Virus record (IMG/VR): IMGVR_UViG_3300031853_000004 | Span: 1 to 37,318 of that record | Direction: 5' to 3' (one strand) | Source: a virus | Lineage: Duplodnaviria > Heunggongvirae > Uroviricota > Caudoviricetes | DNA: 37,318 bases | Shown: piece after piece, positions 22,085 to 29,217 of the stretch | Layout: each line of letters opens with the position of its first letter | How positions within the stretch are numbered: the first letter of the stretch is position 1 | Program-made: the position numbers and the translations under genes | The notes under the pieces: generated by a model | Databases searched by the model: none | The model's input: the letters and a program-made list of their open reading frames with translations, nothing else | Told to the model about the DNA's origin: nothing

Positions 22085-22969
22085 TTATTTCCAAAGACCT
22101 GCATTAAGTGACTCTTGAAGCCCGCACACACTGTCATGGCCGAAATAACCATCAGCTCCGCAATCTCCAACAGAGAAGCCATTATCAATTAGATATTGTT
22201 GAATCTTGGTAGAAGTCTCACGACCCCAGATACCATCAATCTCTGCTCCAACTTCCTCTTGGATTGCACTGACTAGTTGTGAACCATTTTCTTCAAAAGT
22301 AATATTATAAATATTAGAGTAGAATTCTTTATTATCACTATCTTGACCACTGATCCAGCCATCTTCATAAGTGCCTAGTTGATTTTGCCAATCAATAATA
22401 GTATTCCAACCTCCAATACCATCTACATCAAGTGTACCACCATCACGATTGTTCTTTGGATCAGTATTTACACTAGGTTCAGTATCAGAGCTTGCAGAAG
22501 AACTGCCGTTAAATGGAGGCCGCAGTACGTAAGCTACATTCCCTAAAGTACGGTATTTTTCTTGAACCGCATTTCCTACATTGCCTTCAATAGTTGGGAA
22601 ACCATAACCGTCATAGCTACCAGTAGCAAAACCAATATGGTCAGTATAGCTATCCCAATTCCAGTTAAAGATAATAACGTCACCTCTCTGGACGTCATAT
22701 TTATTAACTGAATATTGTCTTGCTCCACCATTTAGAGCAAGATCAGTGTTTTGAGAAGGGAAACCTTTCATGTATACGCCAGCTCTATCTAGAACTCATG
22801 AAGTATACATGCAACACCATCAAATTTCAGAAGAAGGGCCGGCTAACCAATCCTCTCCAGTTATTTCAGCCATCCAACGGCCATATTTAGAGCCACGTTC
22901 AGGATCGTCAGGTGCATAATATCCCAATTCTCCAAAAGCAACTCTCATTACATCTTCAGCTGTCGCCAT
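22085..22969 (-). CDS. CHAP-domain endolysin with C-terminal peptidoglycan-binding repeats, 294 aa (needs TGA=Trp)
   Basis: MATAEDVMRVAFGELGYYAPDDPERGSKYGRW...SEI*WCCMYTS*VLDRAG: TGA at 22820 and 22796 flank the catalytic Cys. GDVIIFNW, DHIG and TIEGN motifs; LDVDGIGG / DGIWG / DGYFG binding repeats. Confidence 0.92.
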
Positions 22970-22981
22970 ATTAATCACTCC

Positions 22982-24019
22982 TTACGCCCATTTTCCATCA
23001 TTTAGGGAACGTTGTAAAGCACAACAGGTATTAAAACCAAAATATCCATCTACTGCTAGACCATAATCAAATCTATTAAGATACTCTTGCATTTTCTTAA
23101 TAGTTTGCGGACCAATGATGCCGTCTACATAAGCACCAATTTGCTCTTGCATAGCTCTAACCATTGGTGAACCAGACTCATCCCATCTTACAGTAGAGAA
23201 ACGTTCCATATACTCTTCATTTGCACTATCCTGACCGTCAATCCAACCATCAACATAAGTGCCGAGCTGTCTCTGTAATTCAGAAATAGTTAGCTCACCT
23301 GCCCAACCATCAATATTAAGTTCCATATCGCCAGGCTCTTGTGGAGTAACCACTGGTTGTTCAGGAGTTCCATTTGGTGAAGTGTTGTTCTTATATCCTT
23401 CCTTAATTCTAGTAGGATAATCAATTTGGCATCAATTACAATCTACATATCCTGAAACATCATCATACACAACGTCACCATCTGAAAGTCTTATACCGCC
23501 TTGCTGCCATAAGCCAGCATCATCGCCATAAGAAGGCCAATTTCTACCTCAAGCTGCGATTCAGTCTGCATATGGAAGTAACTCATCACTATATACGTTA
23601 TTGTTTCAGGTTGAACCATTTACATAGATACCTGAATAAAATCCATTATTATTTAATGTGTCACAGAAAGTCTTAATAACATCTGTAAGAGCTCTGCGAG
23701 AAAGAGCGTATTGGCGTGGATCTTCAACGTCCATGTATACGGGAAGATCGAAAGCTTTACCAGTTAAAAGACCACCAAAGTGTTCTGCATCTTTTCTAGC
23801 TTCTGAAGTACTTGTAGTAACAGTGTAATAATATGCTCCAATATGGAGTCCTGCGGCTTTGGCGTTGCGGTAATGTGTTTCAAAGGAAGAATCTTTATAT
23901 CTTCCACCTTCATTCCCGCCAGCTTTGATAATTACACCCCATAGACCACGCTTATTTTTTCAAGCATTAAAATCTACGTTAGCGTCTCATCGAGAGACAT
24001 CAATGACTAGCTCACGCAT
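22982..24019 (-). CDS. GH25 muramidase endolysin with peptidoglycan-binding repeats, 345 aa (needs TGA=Trp)
   Basis: IDVSR*D, IIKAGG, IGAYYY, YMDVE, D*IAA*, LWQ and VDCN* motifs; six TGAs at 23987, 23960, 23606, 23561, 23549 and 23432; AAAGGAG RBS. Confidence 0.93.
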
Positions 24020-24037
24020 ATCATTCTCCTTTCTATT

Positions 24038-25600
24038 TTAATCTATTCTTTTAAGAACAGATTCACCAAAACCAAAAACAAAAAATACAAAAAGATAAAC
24101 GGAAGCAAAAACAAAAGGTACAATAAAAGTTTTCGTTATTAAGAACGAAAACACAAGTCCCGCAGTAAATTCAACTATATATTGAACTAATTCATATTTT
24201 CTTCTCTTGGAAACATAGATTAATAATCCAATAGAAAGAATGAAAATAAAGTTAATTAAGAATCAATCATTAAGACTTTCATCTGCGGTTTTAGCTTTAG
24301 CATATTCATCAATTCTCATAACAGAAGTTTTATATTCTTTAGTATCATTTAATTTAGATGATTCGGTTTGTGAAGAAGTAATATTAACTGAATTTACTTC
24401 TTTAACAGCTTGAATTAGTGTAGGCTCATTCGTAGAAACTGGAATTTTTTCTTTATTTTCCTCTTTTTGATTCTCTTCTTCAGGAATTTTTTCTTTTTCT
24501 TTTGGATCTTCTTTATCTTTTTCAGGAGTTTTTTCTTTATCTTTTTCAGGAGTTTTTTCCTCTTCTTTTTCAGGAACTTTTTCAGGAGTTTTAGGAGGTC
24601 TTACAATATTGTCCATTTTAGGAAGATATGCTAAATAAATTTGTTCTTCTGGGTAATCTAAATAATTTGGATTATATTTCTCAACTCTAGTTGGCTCTAC
24701 ACCATATCTAAGGAAACTATATGTATACAAATTAATAATATTTTTAAGTGGTGCGCCATCTGTAGTTCCATCATTGTAAGAAACTATTGTAATTGGACCA
24801 TCATTCCAAGAATCCTCAATATTTACAGCTGTCGATGCTATAAATTGTGTTGGTATTCAGTAACCATTTGTATATCCTTCTAATCTGCGGACAAATAATG
24901 CTCCACTATGAGGATATAAATTGCCTTGAGAATAAATTGATACTACATCATTGTTACCAGTATTAATAGTTTCTCATTCTCCTAAAACCATATGTTCTTT
25001 AACTGCATCATTAATATAAAAATTGCTATCTGTTACATCAGGAAAGTCAGAATCTTCAAAATTTTCATCTAAATAAATATGTACATTTGAAATTTTATAC
25101 TGTTCTGTTGAATCATTCTTTTCTACAGACATTGTCTTTGGCTCTTGAGTATTTTCAACCCAAGAGTCAGGTAAATTATCTGAATTAGTAGTTTGTTCAA
25201 CTAATTTAGAAACCGAATCCGCGGCTTTTGCTTTATCGAGTTTTTCTTGTTTTTCTAATTGTTTATTATTTTCTTCTACCTTAATATCTTCTTCTTCATT
25301 ATGTTTAGTTACTTCTTCGACATTAGTATCATATTCTTCTTTTCTTTTTGCATTTTCTTCTTCTGCATATTTATTATATTCATCAACTTTATTGTTATAA
25401 TCGTTTATTAAATTATTAGCTTCTTCTTCTGTCATATCATCTGTGATAGTGGGAGCTTGCGGCTCTACTATCTCGGTAGCAATTTCTTCTGAAGGTACTT
25501 GATTTTGTTCAAGTTCAGAAGCAATCGCAATATTTGGAATAAAGCCTATAAATATTATCATCGCTAATATTAGAAAAATAGGCATAACTATCCTTTTCAT
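24038..25600 (-). CDS. Secreted, membrane-anchored surface protein, 520 aa (joins track ORFs 24974..25600 and 24263..24730 via TGA=Trp)
   Basis: One frame open except for TGA at 24974, 24857 and 24263. Signal peptide, coiled coil, Pro/Glu/Lys repeats, then KTAD + TM + KRRK and two further hydrophobic segments. Confidence 0.8.
24510..24557. repeat. Two exact tandem 24-bp repeats encoding EKTPEKDK-type units
   Basis: TCTTTATCTTTTTCAGGAGTTTTT at 24510 and 24534, with degenerate copies to about 24595. Confidence 0.85.
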
Positions 25601-25694: not shown

Positions 25695-25769
25695 TGGAGC
25701 TCCGTGAGGGTAACGCTCCCCCGTCTGATGATTACAAGTCAACTGTAATAGCTATTATACTAACGGAGC
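25695..25769 (-). tRNA. tRNA-Thr(UGU)
   Basis: Acceptor GCTCCGT/ACGGAGC, loop CT-TGT-AA, encoded CCA; atypical T-loop AGCGTTA. Confidence 0.85.
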
Positions 25770-25973: not shown

Positions 25974-26051
25974 TGATCGCGCGACGCATGAATCGAACAT
26001 ACCTACTCTTATGCTTATGAGACATAATTGGACACCAGCCCACCGCCCGCA
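25974..26051 (-). tRNA. tRNA with CAU anticodon (Met or Ile2), imperfect acceptor stem
   Basis: Anticodon arm TATGT-CTCATAA-GCATA; T arm GTATG-TTCGATT-CATGC. The acceptor stem needs a bulge and there is no clean CCA. Confidence 0.6.
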
Positions 26052-26058
26052 ATATAAT

Positions 26059-26196
26059 TAAGAGGAAATAATTAGAATAGTGTAAAATACGCGCTCTACC
26101 CTTGAGCTACAAAAACGTACTGTGCTTTTGGCAAGATTCGAACTTGCAATAACGTGTCTCCTAGACATGAAGTAACTATTCTATCCATCACTCTTA
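26059..26196 (-). ncRNA. Y-RNA-like hairpin RNA 1 carrying a circularly permuted tRNA-like domain (YrlA-like topology)
   Basis: End-paired scaffold encloses, in order, T arm GCAAG-TTCGAAT-CTTGC, acceptor 3' strand CAAAAGC, short loop, acceptor 5' strand GTTTTTG and D arm GCTC-AAGGGTA-GAGC. Confidence 0.75.
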
Positions 26197-26390
26197 TTTA
26201 ATTGTTTTCAAAGTCAATCTATATTTCTATCTTGAGGGTCTGAATGGAAATAATAATCTATCCAACCAAAATCATCTTCATACATCATTTCTAGACATCC
26301 CACTGGAACTCAGATATTTTGATCTTCTTCTTCCATCTTTTGGATTTCATTTATAATCATATGAAAATTATTTTTTGAAAATTTTGCCAT
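26181..26390 (-). CDS. Small acidic hypothetical protein, 69 aa, three TGA
   Basis: MAKFSKNNFHMIINEIQKMEEEDQNI*VPVGCLEMMYEDDFGWIDYY...; GAGGG RBS. Confidence 0.4.
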
Positions 26391-26448
26391 TCATTCCCTC
26401 CTTTTATTATCACTAACTGGATGTTAAAATTTTATATTTCTGGATGCT

Positions 26449-26544
26449 TGGCAGCCCCGTCCTGTACCGCCCAGGAATAGACGAGTTTGGACCTCGCCAC
26501 ATGGTTTTGAAGACCATCTCGGTTCTTAACCGATAAGCGGGGCT
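26449..26544 (-). tRNA. Opal-decoding tRNA, anticodon UCA, long variable arm (suppressor / Sec-like)
   Basis: Acceptor AGCCCCG/CGGGGCT + G + CCA; D stem TCGGTT/AACCGA; anticodon arm ATGGT-CTTCAAA-ACCAT (anticodon 26508-26510); variable arm GGCGAG/CTCGTC; T arm TCCTG-GGCGGTA-CAGGA. Confidence 0.88.
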
Positions 26545-26546
26545 AG

Positions 26547-27290
26547 TTATATTTTCATCCATTCTTCAAAAGAATATTTTTCAATATCCCTCCTTAATTT
26601 AGGTAATTTATAAGCTACACACCATTTTTTAATAGTCGTATCTGAAACATTAAAACGCTTACCTAATTCAACAAAAGAATTATTATAAACCATTTCTTTA
26701 AAACTTTCTCGGTCAGGTCTTTCCACAGTTCTTTGAAGAAAAGAAACACACTCAGGACAATGAACACTTGTTAATTTAATTTCTTTTCCACATCTTTTAC
26801 AATAATTTTTCTTTTTTGGTTTTTGATTATGTTTTTTATTCTTACTTCCAAAAGTATCTAACTGTCTATCACAATTAGGACATACCCATCTTAAATTTTC
26901 TAATCTATTATCGTTATGAACACCATTTATGTGATCTAAAGTTAAAGTTAATTCTTTATTATTTCAAAAAGGTTCCTGTCCACAAATAGAACATTTATAA
27001 TTATTCTTTGTAGTAAAATCATCTTTAAAATGTTTTCTAATATAACCCGATGAAGCGTTTGAATCTTTGCAGAATGAATTTTCAAAAGTTCTTTCTTCTT
27101 TATTTGAAGGTATTATTGTGAAATGACTATAATCTATATCGTAATTATCTAACCTTGTTTTTATAACTTTTGAAACATTCCCTGTTAAAGATTGATAACC
27201 TAAATTTTTCGCTAATTGTATAAAATTTGTAGACTTTTTAACTCAATCTTCTAATTCTTCTTTTGAAAAATTATCAACTCTTGCTACCAT
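26547..27290 (-). CDS. HNH homing endonuclease with zinc fingers and C-terminal HTH, 247 aa (needs TGA=Trp)
   Basis: Absent from track. CSICGQEPF*NNKELTLTLDHINGVHNDNRLENLRWVCPNCD; TGA at 27243 and 26964. Confidence 0.9.
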
Positions 27291-27552: not shown

Positions 27553-27582
27553 TTTTATTTATTCTTTAAAAAGAGACTATTA

Positions 27583-28218
27583 AAAAGTTTCTTGCGACCT
27601 TCGCCGTACTCTTTTATTGTGTGTTAATTTTCAGTCACGTAGGAGATAAAAGTGAGCCATACGGAGCGACCGCATAACTTTTTACCCCAGTCTAAAGCTA
27701 TAAAATACACAGGTGTATTTTATATTCTCCATTGAAGGATAACTTTATTACCAAATCTACGCCAGGATTGATTACAAACTGGAACTTTCACCCATCATTC
27801 ACAAAATAATATCATATCTTCAAATGATCTTCCGTATGCCATTTTACCGCAGGCTTCGCGTTTTTTCATTCCAGCTTTGGGCTACTTGTACATTGACCTC
27901 GTCTTATTGATATATTACTATATCTTAACTGGAAACTCTCTTATTGGTATTTCCAACGTTCCTGCTTTGGGCACCACCCCGCACAGACGTTTGGATTCAA
28001 ATCCCGCTGGGACGCCTATTATGAGAGCGACGAGACACTACCTTTTAATCGCACAATAATCGAGCGCTACCTACATTTCGTTGAAATCATTTAATTTCTT
28101 CTTACTATTGGATTACTCCAACAATAAAAGCCAACCATCTAAAGTATCCCATAGATTTCGACTTACTGAGTAGATACGCATGACCGCATGATATTGCGAA
28201 TACACATGCTTCAAAAAC
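27583..28218 (-). ncRNA. Large structured ncRNA of about 630 nt, ROOL-like
   Basis: No long minus-strand ORF, higher GC and many hairpins. 5' TTGAAG..CAATATCATGCGGT..GTAAGTCG, central AAGTAGCCCAAAG and 3' GGTCGCTCC..GGCTCA..GAGTACGGCGAAGGT resemble ROOL as I recall it. Size and tRNA-cluster location fit. Needs a covariance-model search. Confidence 0.62.
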
Positions 28219-28250
28219 TTTTTAATATTCTCTTTTCAAAGAATATTTAA

Positions 28251-29110: not shown

Positions 29111-29217
29111 ATGCGGAAATATTTAAAATAGTTGTTACTGTTAGAATCGAACTAACTTTATTTGATTAAGAGTCAAAGGCTTTCCATAAGCGAAGTAACT
29201 ATTTTACCATCACGCAT
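29111..29217 (-). ncRNA. Y-RNA-like hairpin RNA 4 carrying a tRNA-Lys(CUU)-like cloverleaf
   Basis: ATGCG-TGATGG-TAAAATAGT-TACTTC, D-like GCTT-ATGGA-AAGC, anticodon arm TTTGA-CTCTTAA-TCAAA, T arm GTTAG-TTCGATT-CTAAC, then AGTAACA-ACTATTTTA-AATA-TTTC-CGCAT. Confidence 0.78.

Follow-up and report, generated by a model that had tools for sequence, protein, structure and literature searches.

A putative phage opal suppressor tRNA with a tryptophan anticodon loop copied into its extra arm

Introduction

When the anticodon of a tRNA is altered, how does a host synthetase that recognises this very part still charge it? This question was raised explicitly by Borges and colleagues, who detected a suppressor in no more than 35% of TGA-recoded phages and suspected that odd tRNAs are involved (10.1101/2021.08.26.457843). 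The major identity elements of bacterial TrpRS are the anticodon bases, G73 and A1-U72, and the Bacillus subtilis enzyme additionally favours G-C pairs over the run from G2-C71 to G5-C68 (PMC9976931). An opal suppressor that is to insert tryptophan thus alters one of the marks by which its synthetase knows it.

The window analysed here is the whole 37,318-nt stretch at positions 1 to 37,318 of IMG/VR record IMGVR_UViG_3300031853_000004, and it contains a phage tRNA with a UCA anticodon. An earlier note, made from the sequence alone, described this tRNA as a hybrid and proposed either a tRNA-Sec-derived scaffold re-used as a Trp suppressor or a suppressor that inserts serine. Here we ask what the tRNA is, which amino acid it would carry and how it might be charged.

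Results

A 7/5 tRNA(UCA) on an unusual body

The tRNA gene starts 3 nt past the stop codon of an upstream HNH ORF. The features of the locus are as follows.

26449..26544, minus strand: whole tRNA(UCA) gene, 96 nt, with encoded G73-CCA, from its fold and covariance model R1
26544-26538 with 26459-26453, minus strand: acceptor stem, 7 bp, 5' strand AGCCCCG paired with CGGGGCU
26519..26537, minus strand: 4-nt linker CUUA, then the D arm ('Type B' body)
26501..26517, minus strand: anticodon arm AUGGU-CUUCAAA-ACCAU, 5-bp stem
26480..26498, minus strand: extra (variable-position) arm, 19 nt, 6-bp stem GGCGAG/CUCGUC, 7-nt loop
26460..26476, minus strand: T arm UCCUG-GGCGGUA-CAGGA, 5-bp stem
26449..26452, minus strand: discriminator G73 at 26452 and encoded CCA end at 26451-26449
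22085..25600, minus strand: downstream lysis cassette, three ORFs with in-frame TGA
26547..27290, minus strand: upstream HNH-like endonuclease ORF with 2 in-frame TGA (Pfam HNH_3, 20.9 bits, under the cut-off)

All of the features listed in the earlier note (UCA, A1-U72, G2-C71, G73-CCA, the 6-bp D stem, the long arm, the 7 + 5 bp branch and the odd T loop) were recovered in place on the minus strand. The acceptor stem opens with A1-U72 and G2-C71 and continues with C3-G70, C4-G69 and C5-G68. Its branch is of the 7/5 type (7 + 5 bp): position 8 (C) lies opposite A65 as a C-A mismatch, with no eighth acceptor pair. The D stem UCGGUU/AACCGA (26533-26528 with 26524-26519) closes a 3-nt loop, AAG, in which an A occupies the usual place of G18, and the T loop GGCGGUA lacks the usual UUCRA, retaining C56 alone. 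The anticodon UCA (26510-26508) is displayed in the 7-nt loop CUUCAAA (26512-26506), with U33 and a purine at 37. The variable region spans 24 nt in all; the loop of its arm reads GUCCAAA (26492-26486) and holds a CCA at 26490-26488, on which the earlier note was silent.

The minimum free energy (MFE) structure is a cloverleaf at -38.7 kcal/mol (z = -2.6), and an equally good fold arose in 2 of 200 shuffles. ARAGORN made no call on this tRNA and the Rfam tRNA model left it below threshold; the best Rfam family was tRNA-Sec (RF01852), at 25.2 bits against a cut-off of 47. The allo- or Sec-like body explains why standard tRNA finders miss it. In contigs from four rumen metatranscriptome runs, ROOL was heavily covered and the tRNA almost uncovered, ordinary RNA-seq being a poor means of capturing tRNAs.

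A covarying family of two-arm tRNAs

This tRNA and the five sequences most like it were used to build covariance model R1. The model scores the tRNA at 99.5 bits (E 1e-23), and gives 44-68 bits to 37 more distant family members that were left out of model building. The tRNA belongs to a family of phage tRNA(UCA) with 43 distinct sequences. In their alignment, which had been fitted to the structure of the model, 94% of cells are paired, and covariation reaches 0.72, a value attained by 0 of 500 shuffles, against 0.18 in shuffled alignments and at most 0.13 for slid partners. All helices covary, the acceptor helix at all 7 pairs, and all 5 aligned pairs of the extra-arm stem vary on both sides (96% of cells paired in the same structure-fitted alignment). 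G73 is found in 43/43 members and A1-U72 in 37/43.

We defined the two-arm (UCA + CCA) family by a 7/5 cloverleaf, G73, an extra arm of 5-8 bp and a 7-nt loop of the form N-U-C-C-A-(A/U)-N, and the phage tRNA falls within it by its loop GUCCAAA and its R1 score. Its layout of a 4-nt linker, a 6-bp D stem that covaries and a 3-nt loop is common to L238, L275, L302 and L303; L277 has a 5-bp D stem with a larger loop, and L342 has a long D stem too. Most Type A relatives retain the acceptor stem AGGGGC. The gain in ORF coverage under code 4 at the family loci is confounded by GC content.

Searches beyond this family gave little. Blastn with this tRNA found no match among the GenBank phages of INPHARED. 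BLAST and a loose two-loop pattern yielded no copy in relatives G001-G005, all pattern matches being chance; a copy in G001, interrupted by an insert, was found later. The pattern CTTCAAA N11-16 GTCCAAA was too loose, and among the matches listed most were chance. The scan of bacterial genomes placed 7/5 two-arm tRNAs solely on small MAG contigs and found no cultured host that carries one. Matches in Streptococcus and many other bacteria proved to be chance hits within coding sequence, and the 8/5 tRNA-Sec of Caulobacteraceae and others with UCCAAA in an extra-arm loop of about 9 nt, having been selected by the pattern, are probably chance as well.

The extra-arm loop as a copy of the tRNA-Trp anticodon loop

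The extra-arm loop G-U-C-C-A-A-A is a copy of the anticodon loop of tRNA-Trp. We drew two samples of viral contigs by anticodon arm alone, blind to the extra-arm loop. Together they held at least 12 distinct 7/5 long-arm tRNA(UCA), and every one of these carried N-U-C-C-A-(A/U)-N in a 7-nt loop (variants GUCCAAA, CUCCAAA, GUCCAUA, GUCCAAG and UUCCAAC), with the U-CCA loop kept atop unrelated stem sequences. The samples also contained six genuine 8/5 tRNA-Sec, which lack a CCA loop. The resemblance extends beyond the loop. The standard-code relative G002 has a tRNA-Trp(CCA) with the anticodon-arm core GGU-CUCCAAA-ACC, and an identical core forms the extra hairpin of 11/43 family members; the anticodon arm of the phage tRNA has the core GGU-CUNCAAA-ACC with N34 = U. 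GGU-CUNCAAA-ACC is also the core of bacterial tRNA-Trp generally. Taken together, the sequence comparisons indicate that selection keeps the extra arm similar to an anticodon arm.

Two such similar hairpins could in principle exchange roles. Linkers of 1, 2 and 3 nt would let either of them stack below the D stem, so that TrpRS (or even UGG codons) would meet CCA in one conformer, and UGA codons would meet UCA in the other. The hairpins are indeed near-duplicates in many relatives (GGU...ACC core, stems of 5 bp or more, 7-nt loops, U33 and A37), the 3' spacer that precedes the T arm, GGU or UAU, looks like the short variable loop of an ordinary tRNA, and the order of the arms alone leaves the stacking partner of the D stem unfixed. 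Against this, the MFE and centroid structures agree on a single cloverleaf, and no precedent is known on the ribosome for an extra arm that follows position 26 and precedes the anticodon stem. We consider such a two-way adaptor highly improbable, and its pair of exchanging conformers equally so.

UGA stands for tryptophan

When TGA was treated as sense, the long ORFs of all six frames summed to 129 kb, up from 79 kb. The 143.5-kb phage genome has 179 in-frame TGA, and the late block accounts for 129. In alignments with G002, the TGA columns hold W in 48/95 cases, Y in 6, F in 5 and S in 3, with Cys in 1/95, and this profile matches that of the TGG columns in the same comparison (W 78/140). Against the recoded relative G001, the TGA columns hold TGA in 29/86 and W in 22/86. 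At two TGA sites of the phage endolysin, GH25 enzymes in the PDB have W. A Pfam search of seven late proteins returned no families, hence no Pfam columns for TGA. These alignments support the claim of the earlier note that the proteins imply Trp at UGA, and show that this is the meaning of the codon in the late and lysis genes of the phage.

The tRNA lies just upstream of a TGA-rich lysis cassette that would depend on it, comprising a 520-aa membrane protein with 3 TGA, a GH25 endolysin with 6 and a CHAP peptidoglycan hydrolase with 2. The 'code change module' described for Jade phages is placed similarly (10.1101/2021.08.26.457843). A synteny search with the 520-aa neighbour protein found no relatives.

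The codon evidence bears directly on the two other amino acids that the tRNA might carry. A serine-inserting suppressor, for which host SerRS would read the long arm, G73 and G2-C71 and UGA would mean Ser or a Ser/Trp mix, is compatible with SerRS rules; long-arm G73 allo-tRNAs are thought to be Ser acceptors (PMC5389517), and the D arm here is like that of the 8/4 tRNA(GCU) in G001. At the TGA columns, however, Ser is far outnumbered by Trp and the profile mirrors TGG, and TGA occupies conserved Trp sites of GH25. The invariant CCA loop would have no role in SerRS recognition, and the 7/5 branch matches neither the 8/4 and 9/3 branches of allo-tRNAs nor a canonical class II tRNA-Ser body. This second proposal of the earlier note has therefore become very unlikely. 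R1 does not pick up the tRNA-Ser(AGA) that the phage also encodes (genome position 53455-53545), whose D arm is ordinary.

A tRNA-Sec that serves SECIS-dependent selenoprotein genes would account for the UCA anticodon, the 6-bp D stem with its tiny loop, the long extra arm and G73, as well as for the best Rfam family and for the label 'SeC(tca)' that ARAGORN gives to 39/43 relatives. We counted the tRNA-Sec pattern of a 6-bp D stem with a 4-nt loop, a long arm and G73 as present, the loop here being 3 nt. But the branch is 7/5 rather than 8/5, the RF01852 score falls well short of its cut-off, and the in-frame TGA align to Trp, not Cys. SelA and SelB, which the earlier note named as a possible explanation, are both missing from the phage, and the true 8/5 tRNA-Sec from the anticodon-arm scans differ in acceptor branch and in loop. 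As far as sequence can tell, the selenocysteine reading is refuted. Of the Sec-derived scaffold re-used as a Trp suppressor, the Trp opal part is supported and descent from tRNA-Sec is not. The body is nonetheless a hybrid, as the earlier note had it: acceptor end and anticodon arm are Trp-like, and D arm and long extra arm are like those of tRNA-Sec or allo-tRNA-Ser.

Which enzyme charges the tRNA?

The earlier note had suggested looking through the rest of the genome for a TrpRS, a release factor or a second UCA tRNA. The phage genome, which is 100% complete, was searched, and no TrpRS, release factor, SelA or SelB was found; by R1 the tRNA is single-copy. As the phage has no TrpRS, the host must charge the tRNA. 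Across records, a TrpRS accompanies 0/37 with two-arm tRNAs (this genome counted) and 3/11 with short-arm tRNA(UCA) (Fisher p = 0.0095), an association that draws on one TrpRS lineage (58-64% identity), many incomplete contigs and few independent events. Wherever a tRNA(UCA) adjoins a phage TrpRS, its variable loop is short (4-5 nt).

For a host TrpRS, the phage tRNA offers G73, A1-U72 and G2-C71; pairs 3-70, 4-69 and 5-68 are C-G, where the B. subtilis rules favour G-C. Escherichia coli TrpRS fails to charge certain phage tRNA(UCA), which require a phage TrpRS, and thirteen short-arm phage tRNA(UCA) without a second, decoy arm are charged with Trp in E. coli extract (PMC12636597). The extra arm is consequently not a universal need.

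These thirteen tRNAs lend some weight to a Trp opal suppressor that TrpRS accepts through G73, A1-U72 and C35-A36 while the CCA hairpin has another job. Candidate jobs are recruitment of a MiaA-type enzyme, stabilisation of the core, a block to SerRS, LeuRS or TyrRS, and a decoy for an anticodon nuclease. Both loops carry A36-A37-A38, the context used by MiaA, and the reach of TrpRS to a variable arm is geometrically unproven. The conserved letters, on the other hand, are exactly U33 and the three Trp anticodon bases, not those of any stable loop, and in the 11 members noted above the hairpin core is that of the Trp anticodon arm. The arm also never occurs beside a phage TrpRS, which fits charging better than a structural role. 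We regard another job for the hairpin as rather unlikely.

Discussion

Our preferred reading, to which we assign a probability of roughly 0.6, is that this is a phage-borne opal suppressor charged with Trp by the host TrpRS through a CCA decoy arm. The UCA arm, in the normal anticodon position, would read UGA on the ribosome, so that the TGA-rich late and lysis genes are translated with Trp. The UCA anticodon costs the tRNA C34, a main mark for bacterial TrpRS. With C34 lost and no TrpRS from the phage, we propose that the tRNA carries a second hairpin showing U33-C-C-A-A37, and that the host TrpRS would recognise this hairpin, along with G73 and A1-U72, via its anticodon-binding domain and so charge the tRNA with Trp. 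Binding of the second arm by TrpRS is inferred, as are expression, charging and use of the tRNA. The 'variable arm', taken as a second anticodon-like hairpin with the Trp anticodon, would directly answer the charging puzzle that the earlier note had posed. The geometry of TrpRS reach is unproven because a 6-bp arm leaving the tRNA core lies away from the place of the anticodon loop.

More broadly, the two jobs of an anticodon may have been split, with the UCA arm serving the ribosome and a portable CCA arm serving as a tag for the host TrpRS. The decoy would have been grafted onto at least two tRNA bodies, and phages would recode either with a TrpRS or with the decoy. We hold this wider proposal to have slightly better than an even chance. 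Within it, one recipient body of the module would be allo- or Sec-like with its own non-canonical D-loop/T-loop elbow; here the two-arm module sits on a body whose linker has 4 nt, whose D arm consists of a 6-bp stem and a 3-nt loop, and whose T loop is GGCGGUA.

The closest known systems are the opal suppressor tRNA(UCA) of TGA-to-Trp phages (10.1101/2021.08.26.457843; PMC12636597), which share a phage-borne UCA tRNA, a low-GC phage, in-frame TGA at Trp positions in late and lysis genes, a tRNA upstream of the lysis cassette and expected Trp charging. Neither of these reports mentions a second CCA hairpin, which the present tRNA has. The tested or TrpRS-linked phage tRNA(UCA) that we inspected have a short variable loop, whereas this one has two anticodon-like arms, an allo- or Sec-like D arm and a non-canonical T loop. 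With bacterial tRNA-Trp(CCA) and the code-4 (Mycoplasma) tRNA-Trp(UCA) it shares A1-U72, G2-C71, G73, the GGU-CUNCAAA-ACC core and the 7/5 branch. In those tRNAs the variable loop is 4-5 nt long, D arm and T loop are normal, and CCA or UCA stands in a single anticodon arm; the phage tRNA differs by its CCA in an extra hairpin and by C-G at 3-70 to 5-68.

Bacterial tRNA-Sec (selC, RF01852) is alike in UCA, G73, a long extra arm and a 6-bp D stem that closes a very small loop, and unlike in its 8/5 branch (7/5 here) and 2-nt linker (4-nt here); in the phage tRNA, moreover, the extra loop is an invariant copy of the Trp anticodon and the codons are those of Trp. The allo-tRNAs and 8/4 tRNA-Ser of rumen bacteria and phages (PMC5389517) likewise combine a long D stem and tiny loop with a long arm and G73, in a rumen phage setting and with non-standard anticodons. 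The 8/4 tRNA(GCU) of G001 has the T loop GGCGGGA, similar to GGCGGUA here, and the D loop GAG. Unlike allo-tRNAs, the phage tRNA has a 7/5 branch and the codon it decodes stands for Trp, not Ser.

Mimicry of an anticodon arm outside tRNA is seen in the E. coli thrS mRNA operator, a regulatory element bound by ThrRS. There too a synthetase recognises an anticodon-like hairpin other than the decoding arm, the difference being that the hairpin is part of an mRNA. Engineered, hairpin-tagged variable arms, where another protein recognises an aptamer hairpin apart from the decoding arm, demonstrate that a functional hairpin can be tolerated without killing translation, albeit in man-made tRNAs (PMC7590224). 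Our literature search for a second or decoy anticodon arm found no natural tRNA with a decoy of its own identity and no published description of one.

If the proposal is true, it would represent a new principle of tRNA identity, in which decoding and charging signals lie on separate hairpins. A tRNA that carries its own copy of the cognate anticodon arm would be a simple natural answer to how an anticodon-reading host synthetase can charge it despite a changed anticodon. It may also explain missing decoders, as many TGA-recoded phages seem to have no suppressor, and this tRNA is invisible to ARAGORN and Rfam and the copy in a relative is split by an intron. For genetic-code expansion it suggests a design in which a charging handle in the extra arm frees the suppressor anticodon to change. 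For the phages themselves, it would mean that they hold two alternative kits for recoding UGA, either a TrpRS of their own or a decoy arm on the tRNA.

The fold of tRNA(UCA) and the loop of its extra arm

The tRNA(UCA) is a 96-nt tRNA at 26544-26449 on the minus strand, as read from the sequence of the window, with these parts from the 5' end:

Acceptor 5' strand, AGCCCCG
Linker between acceptor strand and D arm, CUUA (4 nt)
D arm, UCGGUU-AAG-AACCGA, then one G
Anticodon arm, AUGGU-CUUCAAA-ACCAU, then GU
Extra arm (a second hairpin in the variable-arm position), GGCGAG-GUCCAAA-CUCGUC, then UAU
T arm, UCCUG-GGCGGUA-CAGGA
Acceptor 3' strand, CGGGGCU, then G73 and an encoded CCA

This cloverleaf is both the minimum-energy fold and the centroid (-38.7 kcal/mol, z = -2.6). 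Sequence and fold confirm the observation in an earlier note, which listed A1-U72, G2-C71, G73-CCA, a 6-bp D stem with a tiny loop, a long arm, a 7+5 branch and an odd T loop. Its interpretation held in part: the reading as a Trp suppressor with a hybrid body stands, the Sec and Ser options it offered are not supported, and the loop of the extra arm was overlooked. In this loop, G-U-C-C-A-A-A, the places of U33 and A37 are taken by U and A, with CCA between them; judged by its letters, it is the anticodon loop of tRNA-Trp.

ARAGORN called four other tRNAs in the window and not tRNA(UCA), and Rfam at gathering thresholds returned ROOL and four tRNAs there, again without it. A local Rfam scan of the tRNA gave tRNA-Sec alone, whose 25.2 bits fall short of the cut-off of 47.

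Genome setting

The phage record (IMG/VR, 143,542 bp, 32% GC, rated 100% complete) has the window as its first 37 kb, and the DNA runs that contain at least one fifth of the words sampled from the stretch come from gut metagenomes of cattle and sheep. Once TGA is taken as sense, the ORFs of at least 150 aa (six frames) add up to 129 kb instead of 79 kb. A simple code-4 ORF set for the whole genome contains 179 in-frame TGA across 113 ORFs, with 129 of them in the late/structural block (76-128.5 kb), which has fewer TGG (56), and almost none in the replication block. The order along the minus strand is:

27575-28233, minus: ROOL RNA, full length (284 bits against a cut-off of 99)
tRNA-Pro
HNH-like ORF (2 TGA)
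tRNA(UCA)
26065-26179, minus: YrlA-like (Y RNA-like) element, a sub-threshold match (37.4 bits against a cut-off of 69, local E 2e-6) between tRNA(UCA) and tRNA-Met
tRNA-Met
25698-25769, minus: tRNA-Thr(UGU), 47.6 bits in Rfam, missed by ARAGORN
25681-25659: terminator-like hairpin
Lysis cassette: 520-aa membrane protein (3 TGA), GH25 endolysin (6 TGA), CHAP hydrolase (2 TGA)

The arrangement is the same as that described for recoded phages by Borges et al. (10.1101/2021.08.26.457843), with the decoder directly upstream of TGA-rich lysis genes.

Rumen metatranscriptome contigs cover the ROOL RNA at high depth, and some RNA contigs of two studies join its ends head to tail (28217 to 27591, 28223 to 27644, 28243 to 27578), which could mean that relatives carry it in tandem, that the RNA is circular or that the contigs are misassembled. 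RNA contigs of relatives also cover 25979-26405 at ~92% identity. A tRNA-Lys(CUU) at 29131-29200 (minus) is just 70 nt long; its pair 1-72 is an A-A mismatch and its D loop is very small.

The meaning of UGA

Translations of all code-4 ORFs, with TGA rendered as X, were searched by tblastn against two relatives identified via a late protein, G001 (recoded) and G002; X scores equally against every residue, so that tblastn itself has no bias to W. G002 (46% GC) apparently uses the standard code, since it carries a tRNA-Trp(CCA) and aligns no TGA to the phage's TGA or TGG columns. Its residues under the phage's TGA (n = 95) include W 48, Y 6, F 5, L 5, A 5 and S 3, and under TGG (n = 140) W 78, Y 15 and F 14. 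The corresponding G001 columns hold TGA 29 and W 22 under TGA (n = 86), and W 71, Y 19, TGA 10 and F 8 under TGG (n = 138). PDB GH25 enzymes compared with the endolysin have W at X11 and X153 and Y at X157.

From the relatives' TGA columns and these GH25 residues, UGA is read as Trp in the phage genes; the earlier note's view that the proteins imply Trp is borne out by W in 48 of the 95 G002 columns and by the GH25 W sites. Serine and cysteine, the latter found in 1/95 of those columns, are not supported.

The two-arm family and its second hairpin

Viral contigs were scanned for the 14-mers GGTCTTCAAAACCA and GGTCTTCAAAACCG, which specify the anticodon arm alone and leave the extra-arm loop free. 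The matches listed were mostly coding sequence, with tRNA-like ones in three classes: at least 11 short-arm 7/5 tRNA(UCA) with a 4-5-nt variable loop; at least 12 distinct long-arm 7/5 tRNA(UCA), all with U-CCA at positions 2-5 of a 7-nt loop (GUCCAAA, CUCCAAA, GUCCAUA, GUCCAAG or UUCCAAC); and at least six genuine 8/5 tRNA-Sec, whose arm loops are unrelated to the U-CCA loop. A larger set, from the pattern plus TCCAAA, gave 55 loci and 43 distinct family members. Because these 43 were picked by the loop motif, we base the claim of CCA-loop conservation on the two loop-blind samples only.

A covariance model built from tRNA(UCA) and its five nearest look-alikes was used to align all 43. In this alignment, which is fitted to the model's own structure, 94.1% of cells pair, both sides have changed in 25 of 29 pairs, and covariation is 0.723, against 0.179 in shuffles (0/500 reach it) and at most 0.13 with slid partners. 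The extra-arm helix shows double changes in 5/5 pairs and is 96% paired, and thus the stem sequences are unrelated and the loop is fixed. G73 is present in 43/43 members and A1-U72 in 37/43; the hairpin core GGU-CUCCAAA-ACC equals the Trp anticodon-arm core in 11/43.

True 8/5 tRNA-Sec in bacterial genomes (Caulobacteraceae, Skermanella, Bryobacteraceae and others) also carry UCCAAA in an extra-arm loop of ~9 nt, at L437, L440, L445 and about 20 more loci, picked by the search pattern itself. This is probably chance, and is a warning against searches by motif alone.

Two tRNA bodies

Most members (Type A) resemble an ordinary tRNA-Trp with an arm inserted, having an AGGGGC-type acceptor stem, the D arm GUGU-AAUGGUA-GCAC and the T loop UUCGA. 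The smaller Type B comprises the window's tRNA(UCA), L238, L275, L277, L302, L303 and L342, and has a linker of 3-4 nt (CUUA in 4/6 aligned members), a covarying D stem of 6 bp in most members (5 bp in L277), a D loop of 3 nt ending in G in most (larger in L277 and L342) and UAU before the T stem. The branch is 7/5 throughout; an eighth acceptor pair would face C with A. ARAGORN labels 39/43 family members 'tRNA-SeC(tca)', and the sole Type B member that it misses is the window's.

Within Type B, the window's tRNA(UCA) alone has the T loop GGCGGUA with the D loop AAG, the others having mostly UUCGA-type T loops with AGG or GGG (L238: CUCGAUA). Its elbow retains C56 and the last D-loop G, and the G18/U55 and U54/A58 positions are altered together. 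The same unusual letter pairing (GAG with GGCGGGA) occurs in an 8/4 tRNA(GCU) of G001 (L035:15750-15836, plus strand), which has a 6-bp D stem and a long arm, is missed by ARAGORN and belongs to the allo-tRNA-Ser type that Mukai et al. (PMC5389517) described in bacteria and phages of the rumen. The GGCGG-type elbow would seem to serve as a functional alternative among these phages. Since that tRNA shares the elbow, and given the Type B layout, 'Ser/Sec-like arms' was a fair account of the body.

The tRNA-Trp(CCA) of G002 (L037:16216-16297, minus strand) has a Type-B-like body, with a 4-nt linker UAUA, a 5-bp D stem, a small 3-bp extra arm, the T loop UGCAAUA and A73; a relationship to the body of the window's tRNA(UCA) is possible.

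A split decoder gene in G001

In G001, the nearest recoded relative, the decoder at first seemed missing. A Type A two-arm gene is present, split in the anticodon loop:

L035:15149-15437 (G001 115149-115437): split suppressor; the spliced product would be a Type A two-arm tRNA

Exon 1 runs to ...GCGGU-CUU at position 115181, after the CUU of the anticodon loop, and is followed by an insert of ~192 nt; exon 2 resumes with CAAAACCGU, then a hairpin with the loop CCUCCAAAC. The exon end U and insert end G are as in group I introns, and no Rfam intron family matched the insert at E below 0.1. With this gene found, two related phages therefore share the UCA and CCA design and differ in the tRNA body that carries it and in its genome position.

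Charging and the proposed mechanism

Bacterial TrpRS recognises its tRNA by the anticodon bases, G73 and the first base pair (PMC9976931), so that the change of C34 to U removes one TrpRS identity mark. TrpRS, release factor, SelA and SelB are all absent from the complete phage genome, whose single UCA tRNA is that of the window; the earlier note's proposed search for a TrpRS, release factor or second UCA tRNA elsewhere thus found none. Without its own TrpRS, the phage must have tRNA(UCA) charged by a host enzyme. The Sec-derived and Ser-inserting alternatives are unsupported, as the tRNA is neither a tRNA-Sec nor a tRNA-Ser by the features that define them, serine occupies 3/95 TGA columns and SelA and SelB are absent. 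Nor is it an allo-tRNA by the features defining that class.

The window's tRNA(UCA) would work like the suppressor tRNAs of recoded phages, and we put the probability that it is a functional UGA-to-Trp decoder at about 0.9. In the proposed mechanism, the UCA arm would decode UGA and the second hairpin would give the missing CCA to host TrpRS. This TrpRS handle is the best-supported mechanism, which we consider somewhat better than an even bet, presuming that the TrpRS anticodon-binding domain reaches the 6-bp arm.

As an independent line of evidence, TrpRS (PF00579) was sought in the whole records, many of them fragments, of 36 two-arm tRNAs and 11 short-arm tRNA(UCA). It occurred in 0/36 two-arm records (0/37 with this genome) versus 3/11 short-arm records (Fisher p = 0.0095 overall, and 0.05 when restricted to records of at least 90% completeness). 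TIGR00233 identifies all three as trpS (304-322 bits); being 58-64% identical to one another, they represent one lineage. From the reverse start, 24 phage TrpRS loci, the UCA tRNAs next to a TrpRS all have variable loops of 4-5 nt. Viral contigs L545-L548 carry 'code-change' modules in large tRNA arrays, with a short-arm tRNA(UCA) 0.1-3 kb upstream of a phage trpS.

Relation to known systems

In the literature searched, no tRNA(UCA) was found described with a second arm, a decoy arm or one resembling the anticodon arm, and the pertinent passages of Borges et al., Seki et al., Mukai et al. and a 2026 paper on tRNA-Trp that reads UGA do not mention one. Borges et al. detected suppressors in just 35% of the phages recoded at TGA and suspected non-canonical tRNAs. 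According to Seki et al. (PMC12636597), some phage tRNA(UCA) are uncharged by E. coli TrpRS and need the phage TrpRS, which parallels the distribution of TrpRS by arm type seen here. This distribution fits two alternative recoding kits, in which a phage would bring either its own TrpRS or a decoy arm on the tRNA.
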